In this document: positions 1,415 to 9,413 of the stretch, piece by piece
How positions within the stretch are numbered: the stretch's first letter is position 1
How the letters are laid out: every line of letters begins with the position of its first letter
Virus genome (UHGV): UHGV-0275551
Strand: one strand, 5' to 3'
DNA length: 64,000 nt
Source: a virus
Notes under the pieces: generated by a model
The model's database searches: none
Seen by the model: the letters and a program-made list of their open reading frames with translations, nothing else
What the model was told of the DNA's origin: nothing
Program-made: the position numbers and the translations under genes

Positions 1415-1786
1415 TTATTTTTTAAGAGTCGCTACAGCAGAGAACGTTGGTTTGTTATCTGTCTGTTGTTGACCACCATTATCAGGAGTCTTCTTAGTGT
1501 CTGCTGCAAGTGCTTTCATCTCACCTGCTGAGTGAGTAAAGATAGTTTTACCTACCTCAATCATGCTCTTGATGGTTACGTCGTCTGTGTTTAACCCGAA
1601 CTCTGCAAGCTTAGCAGCATCCCTTGTAACAATCGCTTCAAATAACTTTGCAGCAAACTCAGCAGAGTTGTCAATGGTCAGTTGAGCTTTTACAAGTGAG
1701 CTTTTGTTGCGAGAGCCTTTTGGTCTTCCAGATGGGTTTCCAGATTGGCCTTTTTTAAACTGGCCTTTGTTTGTTCTGTTTTTCAT
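1415..1786 (-). CDS. hypothetical basic protein (KGQSGNPSGRPKGSRNK motif)
   Basis: 123-aa ORF from track. Confidence 0.55.
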   Translation of the reverse strand: MKNRTNKGQFKKGQSGNPSGRPKGSRNKSSLVKAQLTIDNSAEFAAKLFEAIVTRDAAKLAEFGLNTDDVTIKSMIEVGKTIFTHSAGEMKALAADTKKTPDNGGQQQTDNKPTFSAVATLKK

Positions 1787-1912
1787 TGGTATGCCTCTTA
1801 TAAGACCTCTTAAAAGGCTTTTAAGATAAAAGATAGATATCCAGAAAGATATCTGTTTAAATAGCCTTTTTAGAGGAACCTTTTAAGTTATCTTCTAAGT
1901 ATTTATAAGCCT

Positions 1913-1937
1913 ACACCTTGTCAAGTACTTTGTCAAC
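1913..1937 (+). promoter_or_regulatory. conserved 25-nt motif ACACCTTGTCAAGTACTTTGTCAAC upstream of the first plus-strand operon
   Basis: Near-identical copy at 47723-47747 upstream of the DNA polymerase operon; two TTGTCAA half-sites 11-12 bp apart. Confidence 0.45.
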
Positions 1938-2035
1938 AACTTTTTTAACTTGCAATAGTTCTTGACTTGTTGTATGGATTACTGTACCATCTTACTTAAA
2001 GCTGTAGGTCTGCCTTGTTCTACAAAGGAGACTTA

Positions 2036-2197
2036 ATGAGAAAATCAAATAAACCGAAGAAAGGTAAGAATACCAATCACTGTAAGGAATCAAAAAGGGT
2101 AGAGTCAATCTACTATTCATCCTCTGAAATTGGTCTGTACCTGTTCTTTCAAAATTACAGAAGACAAGAGGATTATCTATGTGTAGTTCCCAATTAG
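2036..2197 (+). CDS. hypothetical small basic protein
   Basis: Track ORF starts at TTG 2015; first ATG at 2036 is preceded by AAAGGAG. Confidence 0.45.
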   Translation: MRKSNKPKKGKNTNHCKESKRVESIYYSSSEIGLYLFFQNYRRQEDYLCVVPN

Positions 2198-2412
2198 AAA
2201 TCGCAGATATTATAGATTTATATCAAACTGCAAAGAGTCATGGCTATATAACCTCAATTGGAAAGAATAGTCACTATGATGCTTTGACTGGAATGTATTT
2301 CAGGGCAATGGCTCAATCTAGTGAACAACACTTAATGGTTTCTTCCAGTGAGTTTACTTCGTTTCTCTATTGCAGCAAAATTATAAATCGCAGGAGAACT
2401 GAAAAATGTTAA
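2179..2412 (+). CDS. hypothetical protein
   Basis: 77-aa ORF, ATG start, co-oriented in operon. Confidence 0.45.
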   Translation: MCSSQLEIADIIDLYQTAKSHGYITSIGKNSHYDALTGMYFRAMAQSSEQHLMVSSSEFTSFLYCSKIINRRRTEKC

Positions 2413-2996
2413 CAGTAAGTTTTAATTACAATAGTGATGGCTCTGTATCAATTAACTCACCATATGCAAATGACCTATTGAAAGAATTAGTTAATCAGTG
2501 TGATAGAGGTCTTCACTATGTTCCAAATTCTTTTAAACAGAAGACTATTGCTAATAACTTGATGCGTGTAACAGTAACGTCATCGAATCCAAATTATGAC
2601 TTTGATAGTGAAAGCCCGTACTCATTAGTTGCGCTTGGAGAGAGCAGCCAATTCAAACTTGTTTGCCACGACTCAGAAACATTCCTTAAGGTATTTTCCA
2701 ACCTTATCCATAATAATAAGTACAGCTACGTTGATGGTAGTGTAAATTTCTATCCAGCAAACTATACATGTTTGTTGGTTGATAATATGAGAAAAAGTAA
2801 GCAAGAGCCTACAGAAATTTCATTTGATGTGAACTCTAGTCCAGACGCAGAAACAAGTAAGAACTTTGATATGAGTTACGCATTGTCACTCAGTAAGAAA
2901 TCCGAGTTCATTGATTATGTCAATGGATTTGGTTTTAAGTTTGATGAGAGTATGAATCTTAAAAAACTTAAGAACCTACTTAAGACCAAAGCTTAA
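2406..2996 (+). CDS. hypothetical protein
   Basis: 196-aa ORF; hairpin AGGGGC-tgat-GCCCCT just downstream. Confidence 0.55.
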   Translation: MLTVSFNYNSDGSVSINSPYANDLLKELVNQCDRGLHYVPNSFKQKTIANNLMRVTVTSSNPNYDFDSESPYSLVALGESSQFKLVCHDSETFLKVFSNLIHNNKYSYVDGSVNFYPANYTCLLVDNMRKSKQEPTEISFDVNSSPDAETSKNFDMSYALSLSKKSEFIDYVNGFGFKFDESMNLKKLKNLLKTKA

Positions 2997-3005
2997 GTGT
3001 GAATA

Positions 3006-3030
3006 GGGGCTGATGCCCCTTTAACTATTT
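3006..3030 (+). terminator. possible intrinsic terminator or attenuator hairpin
   Basis: AGGGGCtgatGCCCCT followed by a T-rich stretch. Confidence 0.35.
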
Positions 3031-3043
3031 ATAAGGATATTTA

Positions 3044-3415
3044 ATGAAAGCTAAGAGTGCAAAAGACTTTTATTGCTTCCTACAATCCTATATCAATTCC
3101 GTGCAAAATGGTGAAAGGTACAACATTAATGATGTTATCCCAACACCTTTGACATGGAGACTCAGTAAATGGCCTGAAGAAGATATTACACCAACAAGCA
3201 AACAACGCACCTACAAACCTGAAATCAATATTCCAGATTCTGAGAATCTATTATATCCAATGTTCCATATTGTTGGTCTTGGAAGATTCCTTATGGATAT
3301 CCAGTATGTAATTGGTAAAGGTTATAAGGTTAAAGGTATTGTTGTTGGTGATGTATCTCCGCATCACAAAGGTTATTTTAGACTAAACGCACATTTAGAG
3401 GCTAAAAAGAAATGA
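3044..3415 (+). CDS. hypothetical protein, paralog of the N-terminal domain of the next gene
   Basis: 123-aa ORF; shares motifs with 3412-4296 N-terminus (W..PE.DI, YKP, FMD(I/L)QY). Confidence 0.55.
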   Translation: MKAKSAKDFYCFLQSYINSVQNGERYNINDVIPTPLTWRLSKWPEEDITPTSKQRTYKPEINIPDSENLLYPMFHIVGLGRFLMDIQYVIGKGYKVKGIVVGDVSPHHKGYFRLNAHLEAKKK

Positions 3416-4296
3416 TTAAAGCAAAGACTTACCCAGACTTCAAAGAGTTTGTGAAGGGTTTCATTGCAAATGTAAAGGCTGGTAAGAGATATGATTTTAG
3501 AACATATCAAGAGGCTATTTTACCACTTACCTATAGTTCATATTGGCCTGAAGCTGATATTGCAGAAGTTGAGAAGTTTGACTACAAACCAGACTACAAA
3601 GTTCCATTTAGTGATGAATTGCTTTACAGTGTTGGTGCACAGATGAGAACTGCTGATTTCTTCATGGACTTACAATATGCAATTATCAATGGTAAAGACG
3701 TTGATACAGTTTATTGTGAATGGCTGGCAAGAGTTAAACCATTCTCAATGCTGAATGCTAAGTTGAAGGATGCTATCAAGCCACCAGCAATCACTCAGCA
3801 ACCAACCAATCAAACAGTAAATGAAGGTGGCACACTTACTCTAAGCATTCTAGCAACTAACGCCACTGGATATCAGTGGAAGAAGGATGGTGAGGACATC
3901 CCTAGTGCCAATTCTGCAACTTACACAAAACAGTCAGTAGCACCTTCTGACGCTGGTTCATACACTTGTGTTGTATCTGGAGAGGGTGGAACAAGTATTA
4001 CCTCAGATGCGGCAACAGTTACTGTCAACGCACTTCCGGTAATCACTCAACAGCCAACCAATCAAGAAATCACTGAAGGTGAGACTTTAACACTGAATGT
4101 TGTGGCAACAGGTGCAACAGGTTACCAGTGGAAGAAAGGTGAGGAAGACATCCCCGATGCAACTACTGCAACTTACACCAAAGAAGGTGCAACCACTGCT
4201 GATGCAGGAAGCTACACCTGTGTAGTTACTGGTGCAGGTGGCTCTGTAACATCTAATGCAGCAACAGTTACAGTTAACCCAGCAGGGGAGGCATAA
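3412..4296 (+). CDS. protein with two C-terminal Ig-like (I-set-like) tandem domains
   Basis: Two ~95-aa repeats with TQQPTNQ...TLTL...GYQWKK...ATYTK...DAGSYTCVV...ATVTVN. Confidence 0.65.
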   Translation: MIKAKTYPDFKEFVKGFIANVKAGKRYDFRTYQEAILPLTYSSYWPEADIAEVEKFDYKPDYKVPFSDELLYSVGAQMRTADFFMDLQYAIINGKDVDTVYCEWLARVKPFSMLNAKLKDAIKPPAITQQPTNQTVNEGGTLTLSILATNATGYQWKKDGEDIPSANSATYTKQSVAPSDAGSYTCVVSGEGGTSITSDAATVTVNALPVITQQPTNQEITEGETLTLNVVATGATGYQWKKGEEDIPDATTATYTKEGATTADAGSYTCVVTGAGGSVTSNAATVTVNPAGEA

Positions 4297-4760
4297 TGCA
4301 ACTCTCAAGAAAAGGTTTAGAAGCTATTAAGTTCTTTGAAGGTCTTAAGCTTGAGGCTTACGAAGATTCTGCTGGAATCCCCACAATTGGGTATGGGACA
4401 ATTCGTATTGGTGGGAAGCCTGTTAAGATGGGTATGAAGATTACCGCTGAACAAGCTGAACAGTATCTTCTCGCAGATGTTGAAAAGTTCGTTGCAGCAG
4501 TGAACAAAGCCATCAAGGTTCCAACTTCTCAGAATGAGTTTGATGCACTTGTAAGTGAAACATACAACATTGGTATCACAGCTATGCAGGACTCTACATT
4601 TATCAAGCGCCACAACGCTGGTAATAAGGTAGGTTGTGCAGAAGCTATGCAGTGGTGGAACAAGGTAACGGTCAAAGGTGAGAAGGTCACTTCAAACGGT
4701 CTTAAAAACAGACGCAGAATGGAAGCTGATATTTACCTTGACAGTGTATACCCAAAGTAA
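4296..4760 (+). CDS. lysozyme / endolysin (GH24, T4-lysozyme-like)
   Basis: N-terminal EGLKLEAYEDSAGIPTIGYG matches the GH24 catalytic Glu/Asp/Thr region; SD GGGGAGG. Confidence 0.85.
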   Translation: MQLSRKGLEAIKFFEGLKLEAYEDSAGIPTIGYGTIRIGGKPVKMGMKITAEQAEQYLLADVEKFVAAVNKAIKVPTSQNEFDALVSETYNIGITAMQDSTFIKRHNAGNKVGCAEAMQWWNKVTVKGEKVTSNGLKNRRRMEADIYLDSVYPK

Positions 4761-4770
4761 TATCTTCATA

Positions 4771-4796
4771 GGCTCCTTCGGGAGCCTTTTTTATTT
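4771..4796 (+). terminator. rho-independent terminator
   Basis: GGCTCC-ttcg-GGAGCC followed by TTTTTTATTTT. Confidence 0.7.
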
Positions 4797-4811
4797 TCTA
4801 AGGAGAAAGCT

Positions 4812-5210
4812 ATGAAACTTTGGGCTAGTGACTTTGGAACTTTTAAGTACACTCGTAATGGCTCGCTTGTACGCATTGTCGGGAACAATGTAGTTTCAAG
4901 AGGTGATAAGGTGTATACACGGTTTACTGTAGAGCTTGTTGAATTGTCACCTATTGAGTCTGTGAACAATGGTCTGTTCAAGTTTGAGACTTACAATGTC
5001 AATGAGCATGGACAATTCAACCCTCTTGGCGAAAGTGGACTTGATATTATTTCAGAGCACCCATTGACAAAAGAGCAACTTGCAGGTTACTATAAAACTG
5101 TTCTGGAAAGGCAGTTAGCAACACATGAACAAGAAGCTAACTACCATCTACAGCATTGCGAAACTTTAAGAGCAAAAATCGAACAAGCAGAGAGAGGTTT
5201 TTATGAATAA
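4812..5210 (+). CDS. hypothetical protein
   Basis: 132-aa ORF, SD AAGGAG. Confidence 0.55.
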   Translation: MKLWASDFGTFKYTRNGSLVRIVGNNVVSRGDKVYTRFTVELVELSPIESVNNGLFKFETYNVNEHGQFNPLGESGLDIISEHPLTKEQLAGYYKTVLERQLATHEQEANYHLQHCETLRAKIEQAERGFYE

Positions 5211-5610
5211 AGATGTTAGAGATATTCAAGTAAAGGTTGACACATTTGGTCATGATGGTCTAGAAGACATCGGTTTTGCCGACGCAGTAATATTCAAGTG
5301 CAACGGAGATTTATTCCTTCGTTTTACAGGGTCTGGAAGCACCCTTCATCGGGTGCGAGATGATGAAGATGGCTGCCCTGTATTTGGTTGGTTTAACACA
5401 GAGTTCCCTCTCTACGTAATCCACTATCCAGATGGTGGAGAAGACTGGACAACCCAATCAATCTTTGATGAGCTTAATGGTGTTCCAGTTGAGCAAGAAG
5501 AGCAAGAAGAGCAAGAACCTGTTGAACTCACCTTCACTTTTATCAAAGAAGAGAAAGTAGGTGACTTGTCAGTAACTGAAGCAATTCAAGTCTCACAGGT
5601 TATTCGTTAA
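5203..5610 (+). CDS. hypothetical acidic protein (EQEEQEEQE tract)
   Basis: 135-aa ORF. Confidence 0.55.
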   Translation: MNKDVRDIQVKVDTFGHDGLEDIGFADAVIFKCNGDLFLRFTGSGSTLHRVRDDEDGCPVFGWFNTEFPLYVIHYPDGGEDWTTQSIFDELNGVPVEQEEQEEQEPVELTFTFIKEEKVGDLSVTEAIQVSQVIR

Positions 5611-5903
5611 TGAGTAAAGTACAGGTTGTTTTCCCTATTTGTGACTTCTCACTGGAGCGTGAACTTGACCTGTACGAAGAAATTACTGACGAAATTATCT
5701 GGTCTGTTGTAGAAGAGGCTATCAAGAAGCTGTATGGTGGCCTCTTAAATCCATCAAGTAAGAAGTTAAGCACTAAGCAAGTAGCTGACCCATATATTTC
5801 ATACGATGCCTACAACAAACCTTTTGAAAATACCTGCTTTGACCTTATGGTAGGTAATAACAAAGTCAACTATTTCTTCGTCAGAGAGTTTAACGATGAG
5901 TAA
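5610..5903 (+). CDS. hypothetical protein
   Basis: 97-aa ORF, start overlaps previous stop. Confidence 0.5.
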   Translation: MSKVQVVFPICDFSLERELDLYEEITDEIIWSVVEEAIKKLYGGLLNPSSKKLSTKQVADPYISYDAYNKPFENTCFDLMVGNNKVNYFFVREFNDE

Positions 5904-6240
5904 GCTCCATGTCACAGTGTACAAAAACTTCTCAGATATTAAAGAGTCTTTAACAAATAAGCTTGACTTACAACGTAAAAGACTCTTTTTAATGTATGAC
6001 ATAGACAACTACAACCATCCTAAAGAGTTTAACTACAAAGATGGTACAAAGGTTGTTGAGTTTGAAGATTCTGTGACGGTGTATGTAAAATATGACTTAC
6101 CAGCAAAGTATATAGGGATGTTAGAGTACTACATATTCAAACATACTGGTATGCGTGGTGAGTCTGTCAAGATATCTTCTATAGAAGTTTTTGAGAAACC
6201 TAACACACAACTTAAAAAGTATTTAATGAGGAAACTGTAA
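5896..6240 (+). CDS. hypothetical protein
   Basis: 114-aa ORF. Confidence 0.5.
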   Translation: MSKLHVTVYKNFSDIKESLTNKLDLQRKRLFLMYDIDNYNHPKEFNYKDGTKVVEFEDSVTVYVKYDLPAKYIGMLEYYIFKHTGMRGESVKISSIEVFEKPNTQLKKYLMRKL

Positions 6241-6830
6241 TGTCCGAAGAGCAACAGAATATTACCCCACAAGTAACACTAGTCCAACATTTTGGGAACA
6301 TTGAAGGTTGTGTTGCACTTTTTCAACCAAGTATCAATTCTCCTGCAAAAGTCTGTAAGTTGACTATGAATGTCAACAATATCAGTGTTTGCCTTGTTGA
6401 TGAAGTACAATACTTCAAATTCAATGACAGAGAAGTTGATGCTGCACTATTGAAGTATCGAGCAAGCCTCGAAAAAGACATTGACCATAAAGAGCTTGTC
6501 ACACTGTTTGGTGACCTACACAAGCTTCTTGAAAAGGTTATTAAGCGTACATACTACATGAACAATGGTTCAATCATCACAACTTTGATTTCTCCATGTA
6601 TCTCAGAGCCAATTCTGACTGATGAAGGTGGATACTACGTAGTGGCATCAGCAGATTCTGATTGGTGGATGAAAAATACAGCACTTAAGACGGTTATTGA
6701 GGCTATTCGTGAGCATATCCCTTCATTCAGCCCGTGGAAAGGTAAAGGTGATGACTTTATCGCACTATTGAGTGAAGAAAGTAGCAAACGCAGTGCATTA
6801 ATGCCTAAGAAGTACTCTTGCCGAGTATAA
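6240..6830 (+). CDS. hypothetical protein
   Basis: 196-aa ORF. Confidence 0.55.
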   Translation: MSEEQQNITPQVTLVQHFGNIEGCVALFQPSINSPAKVCKLTMNVNNISVCLVDEVQYFKFNDREVDAALLKYRASLEKDIDHKELVTLFGDLHKLLEKVIKRTYYMNNGSIITTLISPCISEPILTDEGGYYVVASADSDWWMKNTALKTVIEAIREHIPSFSPWKGKGDDFIALLSEESSKRSALMPKKYSCRV

Positions 6831-6902
6831 AATATTGACTATAATGGGAGCTATCGAGAGGTAGTTCCCTTTTTAGCTTCTTAAGAAGATGCGTGGTGAA
6901 AA

Positions 6903-7121
6903 ATGAAAAAACTAACTACAGTTGAAGATTACTACAAACTGTCCCTATTAGAACAATATCGTAGGAGTCAGAATATCAGAAAATGCTATGGTAAACACGC
7001 TGAAGGTGACTTTTACCGTTGCTACGATGCAGATTTAAAAGGTGTAACACCTAGAGGGAAAGTCCTGCAAAGACTTGTTGACCTTGAGTGGAACAAACGA
7101 TTGAGAGGGGTTGGGAAATGA
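6903..7121 (+). CDS. hypothetical protein
   Basis: 72-aa ORF. Confidence 0.45.
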   Translation: MKKLTTVEDYYKLSLLEQYRRSQNIRKCYGKHAEGDFYRCYDADLKGVTPRGKVLQRLVDLEWNKRLRGVGK

Positions 7122-7621
7122 TTTACGAAGAAAGATACAAGATAGATTATCAGAAGACTGGTCATCACACTTCACTAAGAGTAACCAAACCAAATGGGGA
7201 TACTGGTATCATAGCACATTTTGGTGGTGATTATTGGTACGGTACAGGTTGCTTTGAAGGCTACACTCAAGAATACTTAAAAGCTTTCTACAGAGACTTT
7301 ACAAATGACTACAACAGGGTTGTTGAAGAGAAGAATAAGTGCATTAAGCATGAATACCATGCCAGAGGTTGTCTGAATATTGTTATGATACTGGTTTTCT
7401 TCTTAGCAACATTACTAGCCGTATCAGCAATCAGCTACATAGCTCAAGACTTGACCATTACACAGATTACTGCAAAGGTACATGATGTTTGGTACTTGTA
7501 TGCTGTTCCTTTAGCTGGTATCATCATCTCACTAATAAGGTTCAGAGTTCATAAGAAACGACTTAAGGACTCTGAGGTTAAACTTGAAGAGGTAAGTAAA
7601 GAATGCAACCTACAATTATAG
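7118..7621 (+). CDS. hypothetical membrane protein (C-terminal TM segments)
   Basis: Track start is GTG 7088; ATG at 7118 overlaps previous stop (ATGA) and has a purine-rich SD; hydrophobic C-terminus. Confidence 0.5.
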   Translation: MIYEERYKIDYQKTGHHTSLRVTKPNGDTGIIAHFGGDYWYGTGCFEGYTQEYLKAFYRDFTNDYNRVVEEKNKCIKHEYHARGCLNIVMILVFFLATLLAVSAISYIAQDLTITQITAKVHDVWYLYAVPLAGIIISLIRFRVHKKRLKDSEVKLEEVSKECNLQL

Positions 7622-7697
7622 CTGTCTGTGTTCGTTTTGCAATCACTGAAATGATTAACAAGGCAATCTTAAAAGATGCCTATGGAGAGACTAAGTA

Positions 7698-7922
7698 ATG
7701 ATTAAGACACCTGTACCAATTTTTGGATTTCCTTCTATAGAAGAGTTTAAAGTTTATCTTGACAAAAACTTCTACAATGAGCAGCCTGTTACTTTGCTGA
7801 AGAGTGACTTATCAGAGCTTCTTGATATGATTATCAAGGCAACTTCTGAGAAGGAACCTGAACAGAAAGCTGAGAAGAAGACTAGTAAGAAATCCGATAA
7901 GAAGACTGAAAAGTCTGAGTAA
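7698..7922 (+). CDS. hypothetical protein (K/E-rich C-terminus)
   Basis: 74-aa ORF. Confidence 0.45.
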   Translation: MIKTPVPIFGFPSIEEFKVYLDKNFYNEQPVTLLKSDLSELLDMIIKATSEKEPEQKAEKKTSKKSDKKTEKSE

Positions 7923-7974
7923 TAACTTAGGGGTTACTTGATAGCCCCTTTGTAGAAACTTAGAAGGTAGCGAA

Positions 7975-8397
7975 ATGAAAGAGCTTATTGGTAAAAGATT
8001 GACAGTTTACTGCTCTAAAACAAAGAAACCACTCACTTCTGTGAAGGTTTTTGATGTTGACACCACTGGTGTAGAGTACCCAATCCAATGCACAATAATT
8101 ACTCCATTCAATGCAGATGATATGGATTTTAAAGAGTGTGAAGTGATATCTTTTAATGCTGATGGGTATTGGAGAGGTAAGTTAAACAAGCAATCAAAAG
8201 ATTTTGATATGCAAATCCTTATCAATGAAGGCTATATCTGTGTAAAAGATATCCTCGTAGAAGCCTATGAAGAAGGTATAATTGATATTGTGCATGATGT
8301 TGAAAAAGCTTTAAAGCTTGTTATGCCGCATTTAGAATCTGGAAAGCTGACTTTAGAGATGCTTAATAGGGTTATTCGGAGAGCTTATGAAAATTAA
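7975..8397 (+). CDS. hypothetical protein
   Basis: 140-aa ORF. Confidence 0.5.
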   Translation: MKELIGKRLTVYCSKTKKPLTSVKVFDVDTTGVEYPIQCTIITPFNADDMDFKECEVISFNADGYWRGKLNKQSKDFDMQILINEGYICVKDILVEAYEEGIIDIVHDVEKALKLVMPHLESGKLTLEMLNRVIRRAYEN

Positions 8398-8851
8398 AGA
8401 AACAGTTCGAAAAGCAATGCTTACCAATTCAACTAAAGATGAAATGTACAAAGAAATCTGTGATGAGTTGAATTGCTCAAGACATGCTGCTAAGGTTCTT
8501 GTACATTGTTTTATCTGGGAATGTTCAGAAGCTTATATGAGATTCAGAGCTTTTGAAAGTTCTAACTTACTAGGTGATGTAGAAGCTAGTGAGAAGCTAA
8601 AAGAACCTGAAGTGAAAACAGTCCCTAAAGTTGGTAATACATACCCTCTTAAAGACTTCAAGACTGGAAAGATTGTTGCAAAAGGTGTAGTAGAATCTGT
8701 TTATCATGATGGTAAATACTTACTTAAAATATTCGAGTATGACAGCCACTATACGCACTTATGTGGGATTACATTCTTAGTAACAGAAGAAGACATTATT
8801 AGGAACAATAGCAACAAGTTTGCAGTACCAGCTTACCAAGTTTTACGATAG
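8387..8851 (+). CDS. hypothetical protein
   Basis: 154-aa ORF. Confidence 0.5.
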   Translation: MKIKETVRKAMLTNSTKDEMYKEICDELNCSRHAAKVLVHCFIWECSEAYMRFRAFESSNLLGDVEASEKLKEPEVKTVPKVGNTYPLKDFKTGKIVAKGVVESVYHDGKYLLKIFEYDSHYTHLCGITFLVTEEDIIRNNSNKFAVPAYQVLR

Positions 8852-8864
8852 TGGTGTGATAGAT

Positions 8865-9413
8865 ATGGAAAAAGATAACTTAAAAGACGTTGAAGGTAAC
8901 TATCTAGTCCTTGACTGGAAGGATGTTCGGGAAGCACTCTCCGAAGAAAATCTTGACTGGTTCGAACAAATTATCTTTGCAGTACGGCATAACCGAGAAG
9001 TTGAAAATGGTAAAGAGCCACTTGAAGGAATCTTTGTAGAAAGGTCTTATCCGTTCTATGAAGACACTTTGCAGAAAGTTAAGATGTACTTTAAACAGAA
9101 GAACCGTAAAGTGGTCACTATGGTGTCTCTTGGTGGACAGAGTATGTCTGTGATGGAAGATATCAACCCTAAGAGACCGAGTAAAGGTGTTTGTATAAAA
9201 ATCACAGGACATGAAGAGTATATCTCAGTGGATGACTTTAGTGCATTCTGTAATGGGTCTTGTGTCTTTAATGGTTTTCACTATGATATCCGAGTATACC
9301 CAATCAAGGGAGATGATATCATGATGCAGATATTCGATAACAACAACGGATTCACTCATTTTTATCAGACAACTAAGTCATCCCTTAAAACAGTTCTGGA
9401 AACACTGATTTAA
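8865..9413 (+). CDS. hypothetical protein
   Basis: Track start TTG 8820; first ATG at 8865 after previous stop. Confidence 0.5.
   Translation: MEKDNLKDVEGNYLVLDWKDVREALSEENLDWFEQIIFAVRHNREVENGKEPLEGIFVERSYPFYEDTLQKVKMYFKQKNRKVVTMVSLGGQSMSVMEDINPKRPSKGVCIKITGHEEYISVDDFSAFCNGSCVFNGFHYDIRVYPIKGDDIMMQIFDNNNGFTHFYQTTKSSLKTVLETLI

Follow-up and report, generated by a model that had tools for sequence, protein, structure and literature searches.

Two adjacent genes that share an N-terminal domain, here called ORF A and ORF B, lie immediately ahead of the endolysin gene in a Felixounavirus genome; over this region its nucleotide identity to other Felixounavirus genomes is 95-96%. The window, that is, the whole stretch of DNA analysed, comprises 64,000 nucleotides of the virus genome UHGV-0275551, and the features of interest are collected in Table 1. 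ORF A and ORF B overlap by the tetranucleotide ATGA at 3412-3415, and the start of the lysozyme gene overlaps the stop of ORF B by a single nucleotide. An earlier note on this DNA, in placing ORF B directly upstream of the lysozyme, was correct, and all three genes lie at the stated positions. The same note described the two genes as tandem paralogs with a common N-terminal domain, a view upheld by BLASTP (37% identity over 101 aa between ORF A and the N-terminus of ORF B, E 2e-15) and by reciprocal cross-matches to the PHROG families: ORF A matches phrog_3995, the family of ORF B, at 8e-15, and ORF B matches phrog_4463, the family of ORF A, at 9.5e-17. Judged by sequence comparison, the paralogy of the two genes is far above chance.

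Table 1. Genes, domains and candidate signals in and around the ORF A-ORF B-endolysin locus
Feature	Position	Strand	Description
GC-rich hairpin	3005..3020	+	AGGGGC-TGAT-GCCCCT then TTT; between the upstream 196-aa gene and ORF A
ORF A Shine-Dalgarno sequence	3033..3037	+	AAGGA; six nt upstream of ATG 3044
ORF A	3044-3415	+	123 aa; Hex-Dec CapBD paralog standing alone, without Ig domains; phrog_4463; Felix O1 ORF37 orthologue
ORF B Shine-Dalgarno sequence	3398..3401	+	GAGG; inside the last codons of ORF A
ORF B	3412-4296	+	294 aa; CapBD plus two Ig-like domains
ORF B CapBD	3412..3777	+	Residues 1-122; Arg79 and Arg107 kept; homologous to 9NCF/9C2D chain S
ORF B Ig-like domain 1	3778..4032	+	aa 123-207; I-set/Ig_3 type; single Cys
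ORF B Ig-like domain 2, short C-terminal tail and stop codon	4033..4296	+	aa 208-290
Endolysin	4296-4760	+	154 aa; Phage_lysozyme (PF00959, Pfam E 1.2e-40); phrog_7 endolysin
Intrinsic-terminator-like hairpin	4770..4797	+	AGGCTCC-TTCG-GGAGCCT and T-run; 7-bp stem, 5 GC pairs, then TTTTTATTTT

Gene order, expression and translation signals

The order 196-aa gene, decoration gene, endolysin is conserved across the Ounavirinae and is ancient among them. With ORF A included, the order A-B-lysin is kept by three genera and also by a more distant metagenomic phage of 87 kb, whose ORF A is only 46% identical. Kolesnikvirus phage Omen and a Hafnia phage possess a 196-aa-like gene, one CapBD gene and the endolysin, with no A paralog; because these two phages carry a single CapBD gene, the ORF A duplication is a derived state. 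The event can now be dated to the ancestor that Felixounavirus, Mooglevirus and Suspvirus share. A homologue of Gad1, which is present downstream in the distant phage L010, gave no Pfam match among the ten window ORFs that were scanned (1415-9413).

The earlier note had regarded it as a puzzle that a gene for a virion-decorating protein should sit in a block of early-type genes. The puzzle did not survive comparison with Felix O1, in which RT-PCR shows ORF36 and ORF37, the counterparts of ORF B and ORF A, to be maximally transcribed late, together with the morphogenesis genes, ORF37 peaking at 60 min (PMC3185647). ORF B lies outside the structural module and immediately upstream of the endolysin, as do its orthologues. 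Such a displaced decoration gene was noted for Felix O1 in 2010 (PMC3185647) and for Bas63 in 2025, where the distance from the structural module exceeds 10 kb (PMC12609058).

Both paralogs are preceded by recognizable ribosome binding sites. The AAGG core of the ORF A Shine-Dalgarno sequence is kept in the 7 aligned phages that retain ORF A. The GAGG ahead of ORF B, in conjunction with the ATGA overlap, suggests that translation of ORF B may be coupled to that of ORF A; the combination of TTAGAGG with the ATGA overlap is kept in nine of ten loci, including that of the distant metagenomic phage, and in EcSzw-2 the overlap is 8 nt.

The hairpin between the 196-aa gene and ORF A may act as a leaky terminator or in RNA stability. 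Its stem is kept in 8 phages of 3 genera, with a variable loop (TGAT, TAAT, GAAA), and PK6 carries one compensatory change in the stem, from C-G to U-A. The centroid fold consists of the hairpin alone (-11.9 kcal/mol), the z-score of -2.1 belonging to the minimum-free-energy fold, and a terminator scan did not call it. At the other end of the locus, the hairpin following the endolysin would close the A-B-lysin unit. A candidate late-promoter motif, CTATTTATAAGG, in the spacer upstream of ORF A was rejected, as its 17 matches (up to 2 mismatches, 8.3 expected) follow no upstream-of-gene pattern; the conserved part of this spacer motif is only the Shine-Dalgarno AAGGA. A sigma-70 scan returned no enrichment (9 sites versus 11.2 expected).

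ORF B as a Hex-Dec head-decoration protein

ORF B is the orthologue of Bas63 Hex-Dec (9NCF chain S), Sf14 gp20 (9C2D chain S) and Felix O1 gp36. Among PDB sequences searched with phmmer, ORF B matches 9ncf_S at E 5e-251 and 9c2d_S/9c3a at E 3e-166, with R79 and R107 aligned, and R79 is invariant among B-type sequences. The AF2 model and Foldseek agree on a CapBD followed by two Ig domains, the CapBD matching 9ncf_S with a TMt of 0.77 (98% identity over 122 modelled residues) and 9c2d_S with a TMt of 0.76 (89%). Since the N-terminal domain common to the two paralogs is the CapBD solved in these chains, ORF B is the known Hex-Dec/gp20 protein, and no evidence speaks against this identity.

Hex-Dec and gp20 are monomeric, Hoc-like decoration proteins that occupy the centre of the 60 pentamer-proximal hexamers of a T=9 capsid (PMC12609058, PMC11821841). 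In Sf14 gp20, which was detected by mass spectrometry and modelled in the capsid map, the CapBD comprises the N-terminal 118 aa, and R79 and R107 bond to Asp221 of the MCP (PMC11821841). Felix O1 gp36, the 294-aa, 31.6-kDa product of ORF36, was found by mass spectrometry in CsCl-purified virions in 2010, with 14 peptides and 44% coverage (PMC3185647). The expectation that Ig domains of this kind decorate virions is thus borne out for the orthologues, by cryo-EM of Bas63 and Sf14 and by mass spectrometry of Felix O1 and Sf14, and it is from these orthologues that the hexamer-centre location is taken. Of the two observations that the earlier note said would refute its reading, absence from virions is answered for orthologues by gp36 and gp20, and lack of an Ig fold by the fold predicted here for ORF B.

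By extension from the orthologues, each of the 60 pentamer-proximal hexamers would have its central depression plugged by one monomer via the CapBD of ~120 aa, Arg79 and Arg107 would form salt bridges with Asp221 in three of the six major capsid protein subunits, and the Ig domains would extend outward as a flexible fibre of the type that is left unresolved in the orthologue maps. The fibre in the present phage would consist of two acidic I-set-type Ig domains without disulfides and, by analogy with T4 Hoc, may serve in weak surface or glycan adhesion or in the control of particle aggregation.

Both Ig-like domains are recognized by Pfam, with the gathering thresholds as cutoffs and two stretches matched by each model: Ig_3 scores 80.9 bits (cutoff 30), Ig_2 67.8 (27) and I-set 61.8 (23.7). 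The AF2 model of these domains has a pLDDT of ~96, and Foldseek matches them to the tandem Ig pairs of Robo, MuSK, titin and MALT1, the first three at E 1e-14 to 1e-11. Where the earlier note described two I-set-like repeats with conserved Trp and Cys positions, the Ig folds, the C-strand Trp (W156, W240) and one Cys in the F-strand Y-x-C motif (C186, C270) are present in each domain; the Cys pair is not, no second Cys being found in either. With only one Cys each, the domains cannot form the canonical intradomain disulfide between the B-strand and the F-strand. A single Cys is typical of phage Ig-like domains and is compatible with the Ig fold.

The two Ig domains of ORF B are 70% identical to one another. 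The first has its nearest counterpart in Ig1 of the Bas63 protein, which has four Ig domains, and the second is nearly identical to Ig4 of Bas63 Hex-Dec, so that the present allele resembles the four-Ig form minus two internal units. Among relatives of ORF B the number of Ig domains varies from one to four, giving alleles of 210, 294, 377 and 461 aa and record spans that differ by ~250 nt. The repeats are detectable at the protein level only: TRF reported no tandem repeat in the DNA, which has merely short conserved stretches at a spacing of 249 nt.

ORF A, a stand-alone CapBD paralog

What is new at this locus is the small upstream gene, an undescribed Ig-less copy of the CapBD that neither the Bas63 nor the Sf14 cryo-EM paper mentions, ORF B itself being already known. 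The only PDB sequences matched by ORF A in phmmer are 9ncf_S (1.6e-11) and 9c2d_S (7.6e-11), and its AF2 model, which is moderately confident (pLDDT 67.7), reaches E < 0.001 in Foldseek only with the same two chains (TM 0.59-0.60). The protein ends 5 residues past the CapBD, without Ig domains, and has no Pfam match. At the column of R79 it has an invariant Gly, and at that of R107 it has Gln or His, Arg occurring in one sequence alone (P0041) within that alignment. Because both anchor arginines are replaced, ORF A is a paralog of the domain and not a demonstrated member of the Hex-Dec functional class.

ORF A is under purifying selection and is a real, selected gene, its dN/dS of 0.06-0.22 comparing with 0.02-0.09 for the CapBD of ORF B. 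It is full-length in 233 of 253 phage records, and an intact copy is missing in ~19 of the 253 related genomes (about 8%), from which it follows that its function is dispensable in culture.

Two other properties were considered. Net charge and pI vary widely among the orthologues of both ORF A and the ORF B CapBD and are uninformative as discriminators between them. A defence or anti-defence role for ORF A, ORF B or the upstream gene was rejected, PADLOC returning no matches for them and Pfam none for ORF A.

We hold with high confidence that ORF B is the Hex-Dec of this phage, seated on hexamer centres with an Ig fibre, and that ORF A is a tandem duplicate of the CapBD alone. As a best guess, we infer for ORF A the role of an accessory to head decoration that is non-structural or only transient; it might compete weakly for hexamer centres or serve there as a placeholder, or it might partner the Hex-Dec CapBD before loading. 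We do not think that it is a stable decoration protein.

A more specific role is offered tentatively, and we regard it as rather doubtful: ORF A may be an unrecognised regulator or partner of decoration, either a transient occupant of hexamer centres (in procapsids, or at the 20 three-fold hexamers) or a binder of the Hex-Dec CapBD that sets the placement or timing of the Ig fibres. We know of no described precedent for a paralog-derived assembly or placement factor dedicated to a phage decoration protein. If ORF A did control the loading of Hex-Dec or mark the remaining class of hexamers, the restriction of decoration to 60 of 80 hexamers would be easier to explain, and ORF A would also be useful for capsid-display engineering of Felix O1-like phages for therapy and diagnostics.

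Lower still do we rate the prospect that ORF A is a second, Ig-less decoration protein on the 20 icosahedral 3-fold hexamers left empty by Hex-Dec, an unlikely reading. The gene belongs to the same fold family as the CapBD, is transcribed late alongside morphogenesis genes and overlaps the start codon of ORF B. The exclusion of Hex-Dec from the 3-fold hexamers is ascribed by the Sf14 authors to a displaced Asp221 facing R79 and R107 (PMC11821841), and exactly these two residues are replaced in ORF A, a change that might mark an adaptation to the geometry of the other hexamers. Icosahedral averaging would blur a monomer placed on a strict 3-fold axis and would therefore hide ORF A on these 20 hexamers. 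However, the capsid maps of both Bas63 and Sf14 are without density at the other hexamers (PMC12609058, PMC11821841). The Felix O1 virion protein list, with a threshold of at least 25% coverage, does not include the ORF A orthologue, although it does include gp23, a protein of 9.7 kDa, and the portal candidate gp53 (PMC3185647); nor does the main text of the VpaE1 study place an ORF A orthologue among the extra virion proteins detected only in that phage. Virion proteomics here amounts to negative evidence from thresholded lists, and 20 copies of a 14-kDa protein on the 3-fold hexamers could escape both such lists and icosahedrally averaged maps. The loss of ORF A in ~8% of relatives likewise counts against a structural role of this kind.

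That ORF A is a decaying remnant of the duplication, devoid of a function of its own, is more improbable again. Lost or truncated in ~19 of 253 relatives, it has been recombined into ORF B in one phage and is damaged in vB_SflM_004; its capsid-anchor residues are gone and it matches no Pfam or defence family. Decay is nevertheless hard to reconcile with a dN/dS of 0.06-0.22 at near-saturated synonymous distances (dS up to 1.4), with a length held at 122-124 aa across three genera and a lineage at 46% identity, with a conserved Shine-Dalgarno sequence of its own and with a transcript detected in Felix O1 (PMC3185647).

Two last alternatives have next to no standing. Most GenBank records and phrog_3995 would make ORF B a tail protein, many records labelling it 'tail protein' or 'major tail protein' and ORF B matching PHROG families of major tail proteins, but the best-matching stretches of phrog_158, phrog_853 and phrog_3575 lie in the Ig region, from ~aa 96-123 on, PHROG and PDB matches place N-terminal to it a CapBD and no tail-tube domain, that CapBD is 98% identical to a chain modelled at capsid hexamer centres, and the Bas63 authors call the annotation wrong (PMC12609058). 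Equally hard to credit, and rejected, is a fusion of ORF A and ORF B into a double-CapBD protein through a -1 ribosomal frameshift at T_AAA_AAG at the end of ORF A: the window does read GCT AAA AAG AAA TGA, with the ATG of ORF B in the -1 frame and no stop codon met after the slip, but the heptamer begins with T and not with A, the motif occurs in Felixounavirus alone and is missing from Moogle (GCTAAGAAATGA), Henu11 (GCTAATAAATGA), EcSzw-2 and the distant metagenomic phage, whereas the Shine-Dalgarno sequence and ATGA overlap are conserved, and Felix O1 gp36 is a protein of 31.6 kDa, not ~46 kDa (PMC3185647).

Overall, the locus is a known system to which a small, undescribed accessory paralog has been added. 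The first reading of the sequence was right about the tandem paralogs, the Ig folds and the decoration of virions, whereas it missed the identity of the CapBD and took for early-type a block in which the Felix O1 counterparts of both genes are transcribed late. ORF B re-identifies a decoration protein whose structure has been solved twice and confirms that its common annotation as a tail protein is wrong, and it becomes possible to annotate the hitherto uncharacterised family phrog_4463 (Felix O1 ORF37) as a Hex-Dec CapBD homologue that stands alone. Phages naturally lacking A, among them mio, REP7, REP8, REP10 and vB_CECAV_041, exist, as does an A(1-48)::B chimera in SP3_SHan-2021, and they are usable directly as genetic controls.

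Comparison with known decoration proteins

Bas63 Hex-Dec, Sf14 gp20 and Felix O1 gp36 resemble ORF B in their CapBD, in R79 and R107, in the type of Ig domain and in the position of the gene upstream of the endolysin; Bas63 Hex-Dec has four Ig domains and Sf14 gp20 three, as against two in ORF B. Between ORF A and Hex-Dec the resemblance is limited to the CapBD fold (35% identity), ORF A having no Ig domains and neither of the anchor arginines.

A word-indexed homologue search with the ORF B CapBD gave almost only one-Ig alleles, and the more distant relatives came from an HMMER profile search and tblastn. These proteins (P0101-P0105; 'tail proteins' of Erwinia Kolesnikvirus and a Hafnia phage) belong to the same CapBD family, with profile E-values of 1e-8 to 8e-5, but the module fused to their CapBD consists of Big_2-type Ig domains or of a Lys/Ser-rich tail in place of the I-set repeats of ORF B. 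Three distant loci were examined, those of Erwinia phage Omen, the Hafnia phage and contig L012. In each of them the CapBD gene is single-copy, without an A-type paralog, and comes after a 196-aa-like neighbour; in the first two the endolysin is next.

T5 pb10 (PDB 5LXK, 8ZVI) has an Ig domain that aligns to ORF B at E 2.5e-12 and 1.7e-12, but it differs in having an unrelated capsid-binding domain and a single Ig domain. We know of no tandem paralog for pb10.

T4 Hoc is a parallel in architecture: like proteins of the ORF B type, it is a monomer at the hexamer centre with a small capsid-binding domain, from which acidic Ig-like domains extend outward in a string. The two differ in domain order, Hoc binding the capsid by its C-terminus and ORF B by its N-terminus, and the match of ORF B to the Hoc-like family phrog_2973 covers only aa 120-292, the Ig region. 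The CapBD of Bas63 is, moreover, topologically distinct from that of Hoc, with minimal sequence conservation (PMC12609058). ORF B is an analogue of Hoc and not a member of the Hoc family. T4 Hoc is non-essential, and so, probably, is the ORF B protein.

The hexamer decoration protein encoded by ORF B

The downstream Ig-domain gene, ORF B, encodes an already known decoration protein. The region is 95-96% identical in nucleotide sequence to Felixounavirus genomes, and the ORF B product matches chain S of cryo-EM structures of Bas63 ('Hex-Dec'; 9NCF, E 5e-251) and of Shigella phage Sf14 (gp20; 9C2D/9C3A, E 3e-166), with 98% identity to the modelled Bas63 domain. Hex-Dec and gp20 are monomeric, Hoc-like decoration proteins whose N-terminal 118-122 residues, the capsid-binding domain (CapBD), plug the centre of pentamer-proximal hexamers of a T=9 head and whose outward-pointing Ig domains are unresolved in the structures (PMC12609058, PMC11821841). 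Sf14 gp20 is anchored by Arg79 and Arg107 to Asp221 of three capsid subunits (PMC11821841); both arginines are kept in ORF B. The Hex-Dec gene lies >10 kb outside the structural module in Bas63, is misannotated as 'tail protein' in most genomes and encodes one to four Ig domains across species of the genus (PMC12609058). Lengths in the ORF B family accordingly form a series of 210, 294, 377 and 461 aa; of the four Ig units in Bas63, the allele in the window has the first and the last. The CapBD is kept at no less than 60% identity in essentially all of 253 related phage records.

The two Ig domains of ORF B (residues 123-290; 70% identical to each other) score far over the Pfam thresholds for Ig_3, Ig_2 and I-set, are modelled by AF2 with pLDDT around 96 in both, and resemble in Foldseek the tandem Ig pairs of Robo, MuSK, titin and MALT1, bearing out the fold proposed in an earlier note. 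Its description of conserved Trp and Cys positions holds with one amendment: in each domain the Trp is accompanied by the F-strand Cys, but a second Cys is missing, so that no Ig disulfide is possible. The note was right that ORF A, the small upstream gene, and ORF B are tandem paralogs with a shared N-terminal domain (37% identity over 101 residues, E 2e-15; reciprocal PHROG family matches of 8e-15 and 9.5e-17). Virion proteomics and a test of the fold, both of which it had proposed, have in effect been done for orthologues; that of Felix O1, ORF36 (294 aa, 31.6 kDa), was found in purified virions in 2010 (14 peptides, 44% coverage) and is maximally expressed late by RT-PCR (PMC3185647). The puzzle that it saw in a virion protein gene within a block of early-type genes beside the lysozyme is therefore void. 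The observation thus stands, and the interpretation was partly right and overtaken by the literature. ORF B is already described; the less trivial component of the locus is ORF A.

ORF A, a predicted stand-alone capsid-binding domain

The only PDB sequence matches of ORF A are to chains S of 9NCF and 9C2D (E 1.6e-11 and 7.6e-11). Its AF2 model, of moderate confidence (pLDDT 67.7, pTM 0.69), retrieves below E 0.001 in Foldseek only the Bas63 and Sf14 chains (TM 0.59-0.60). Because both searches lead to these chains alone, ORF A is, as judged from sequence and predicted structure, a copy of the CapBD that stands alone, with five further residues after the domain. Neither cryo-EM paper mentions this neighbouring gene or uses the word 'paralog' (PMC12609058, PMC11821841), and its family, phrog_4463, has no assigned function in PHROG. 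ORF A adds to the CapBD family a member that lacks Ig domains and had not been described.

Several lines of evidence establish ORF A as a real gene. Its pairwise dN/dS is 0.06-0.22 at dS 0.4-1.4, with tighter values for the capsid-bound CapBD (0.02-0.09) and the lysozyme (0.02-0.11). It is full-length in 233 of the 253 records, and the order A-B-lysozyme is common to Felixounavirus, Mooglevirus and Suspvirus and recurs in an 87-kb metagenomic phage, where ORF A is 46% identical. The Felix O1 orthologue, ORF37, is transcribed late (PMC3185647). Finally, a conserved GAGG and the ATGA overlap between ORF A and ORF B are maintained, which also suggests that the two are translationally coupled; the ORF B stop and the lysozyme start in turn share one base.

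Gene order and origin of the pair

Features of the locus and of related loci (window coordinates unless a locus is named)
Feature	Position	Strand	Remarks
196-aa gene	2406-2996	+	phrog_4034; Felix O1 ORF38; adjoins ORF A upstream
GGGGC-N4-GCCCC hairpin and T-run	3005-3020	+	conserved; between 196-aa gene and ORF A
ORF A	3044-3415	+	123 aa
T_AAA_AAG slippery-like heptamer	3403-3409	+	end of ORF A; ORF B in -1 frame
ORF B	3412-4296	+	294 aa
Lysozyme	4296-4760	+	154 aa; PF00959, E 1.2e-40
Strong terminator-like hairpin	4770-4797		3' of lysozyme
196-aa-like gene in relatives	L012 248-865; L013 1820-2437; L014 1867-2490		upstream of CapBD gene
ORF A remnant, Salmonella phage vB_CECAV_041	L004 1613-1797		185 nt; 3' end of A only
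Chimeric gene, Salmonella phage SP3_SHan-2021 (MW296865)	L003 1801-2679		single gene in place of A + B pair

Even in very distant relatives the 196-aa gene lies directly 5' of the CapBD gene; its counterpart in the metagenomic contig L012 is 28% identical (E 1e-22), and Erwinia phage Omen and a Hafnia phage have a gene of similar size in the corresponding position. The 196-aa gene has no PDB sequence match and no significant Pfam match; that it stays linked to the CapBD gene hints at a functional connection with head decoration. The hairpin preceding ORF A has a variable loop and, in PK6, a compensatory C-G to U-A change. As Felix O1 expression peaks at 25 min for ORF38 and at 60 min for ORF37 and ORF36 (PMC3185647), this hairpin may keep apart genes of different timing; a promoter 3' of it was looked for and not found.

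A CapBD profile search across 1.8 billion representative proteins returned only 13 clusters, the distant ones carrying the same N-terminal CapBD with Big_2-type domains, one Ig domain or a Lys/Ser-rich tail. In Omen (a Kolesnikvirus) and the Hafnia phage, the 196-aa-like gene is followed by a single CapBD gene and the endolysin, an ORF A copy being absent at both loci. From this order it follows that a decoration gene beside the endolysin is ancestral in Ounavirinae and that ORF A originated by later tandem duplication of the CapBD.

ARAGORN detected no tRNA genes in the whole window (1-64000), as against about 22 in Felix O1-like genomes. The tRNA cluster of phage Mushroom is found just beyond the counterpart of the gene cut by the window's left end, and the window therefore probably begins immediately after this cluster. 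The metagenomic 87-kb Ounavirinae-like phage, a distant relative, encodes a homologue of the anti-Gabija protein Gad1 (PF25705; L010 11510-12369) about 5 kb 3' of its A-B-lysin trio; in the window, a Pfam scan of 10 ORFs between 1415 and 9413 yielded no Gad1 match.

Possible roles of the two proteins

Several findings speak against a reading of ORF A as simply another decoration protein. Every A-type sequence in the family alignment has Gly in place of Arg79, and all but one have Gln or His in place of Arg107. Among the Felix O1 virion proteins gp37 is not listed, though the 9.7-kDa gp23 is (PMC3185647); the VpaE1 virion proteome, according to the main text of its paper, contains beyond the Felix O1 proteins only gp54, gp58 and gp68; and neither structure has density on other hexamers (PMC12609058, PMC11821841). 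About 19 of the 253 records have no intact ORF A yet retain ORF B, and in SP3_SHan-2021 the chimera joins A(1-48) to B(51-end) at the WPE-DI motif common to both, at which 10 bases are identical between the genes. A natural domain swap, or possibly an assembly artefact, this chimera would bear on the interchangeability of the N-terminal lobes.

As a late-transcribed CapBD copy, ORF A might decorate the 20 three-fold hexamers at low copy, which the lost anchors, the virion lists and the lack of density on other hexamers make unlikely. That it is a functionless remnant, as its occasional loss might suggest, is less probable still given its dN/dS and conservation. We tentatively favour a non-structural or transient accessory in head decoration: at hexamer centres ORF A would serve as competitor or placeholder; alternatively, it would partner the Hex-Dec CapBD.

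Among individual records, natural ORF A deletions with intact Hex-Dec also occur in mio, REP7, REP8, REP10 and Shigella phage Tf. Both genes are seemingly damaged in Shigella phage vB_SflM_004 (proteins P0048 and P0096), ORF A being a 114-aa copy with an internal rearrangement and Hex-Dec an 82-aa frameshifted fragment only, a state that points either to head decoration being dispensable in culture or to sequencing errors in the record. 'Staphylococcus phage SA1' (GU169904.1, 147 kb) has an ORF A copy at 143190-143558 (97.6% identical) and a Hex-Dec gene; this entry most likely holds contaminating or chimeric Felix O1-like sequence. Frameshift fusion of ORF A to ORF B was rejected, as the slippery-like heptamer, found in the examined Felixounavirus loci, is absent from Mooglevirus and Suspvirus loci and the distant phage; it is probably incidental.

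The CapBD of ORF B would plug 60 hexamer centres via the two arginine-aspartate contacts shown in orthologues, with two flexible Ig domains, acidic in composition (net charge -10), displayed outward. By analogy with T4 Hoc, we infer a role for this Ig fibre in adhesion or aggregation sensing. ORF B is nevertheless not a member of the Hoc family, since its domain order and capsid-binding fold differ from those of Hoc.
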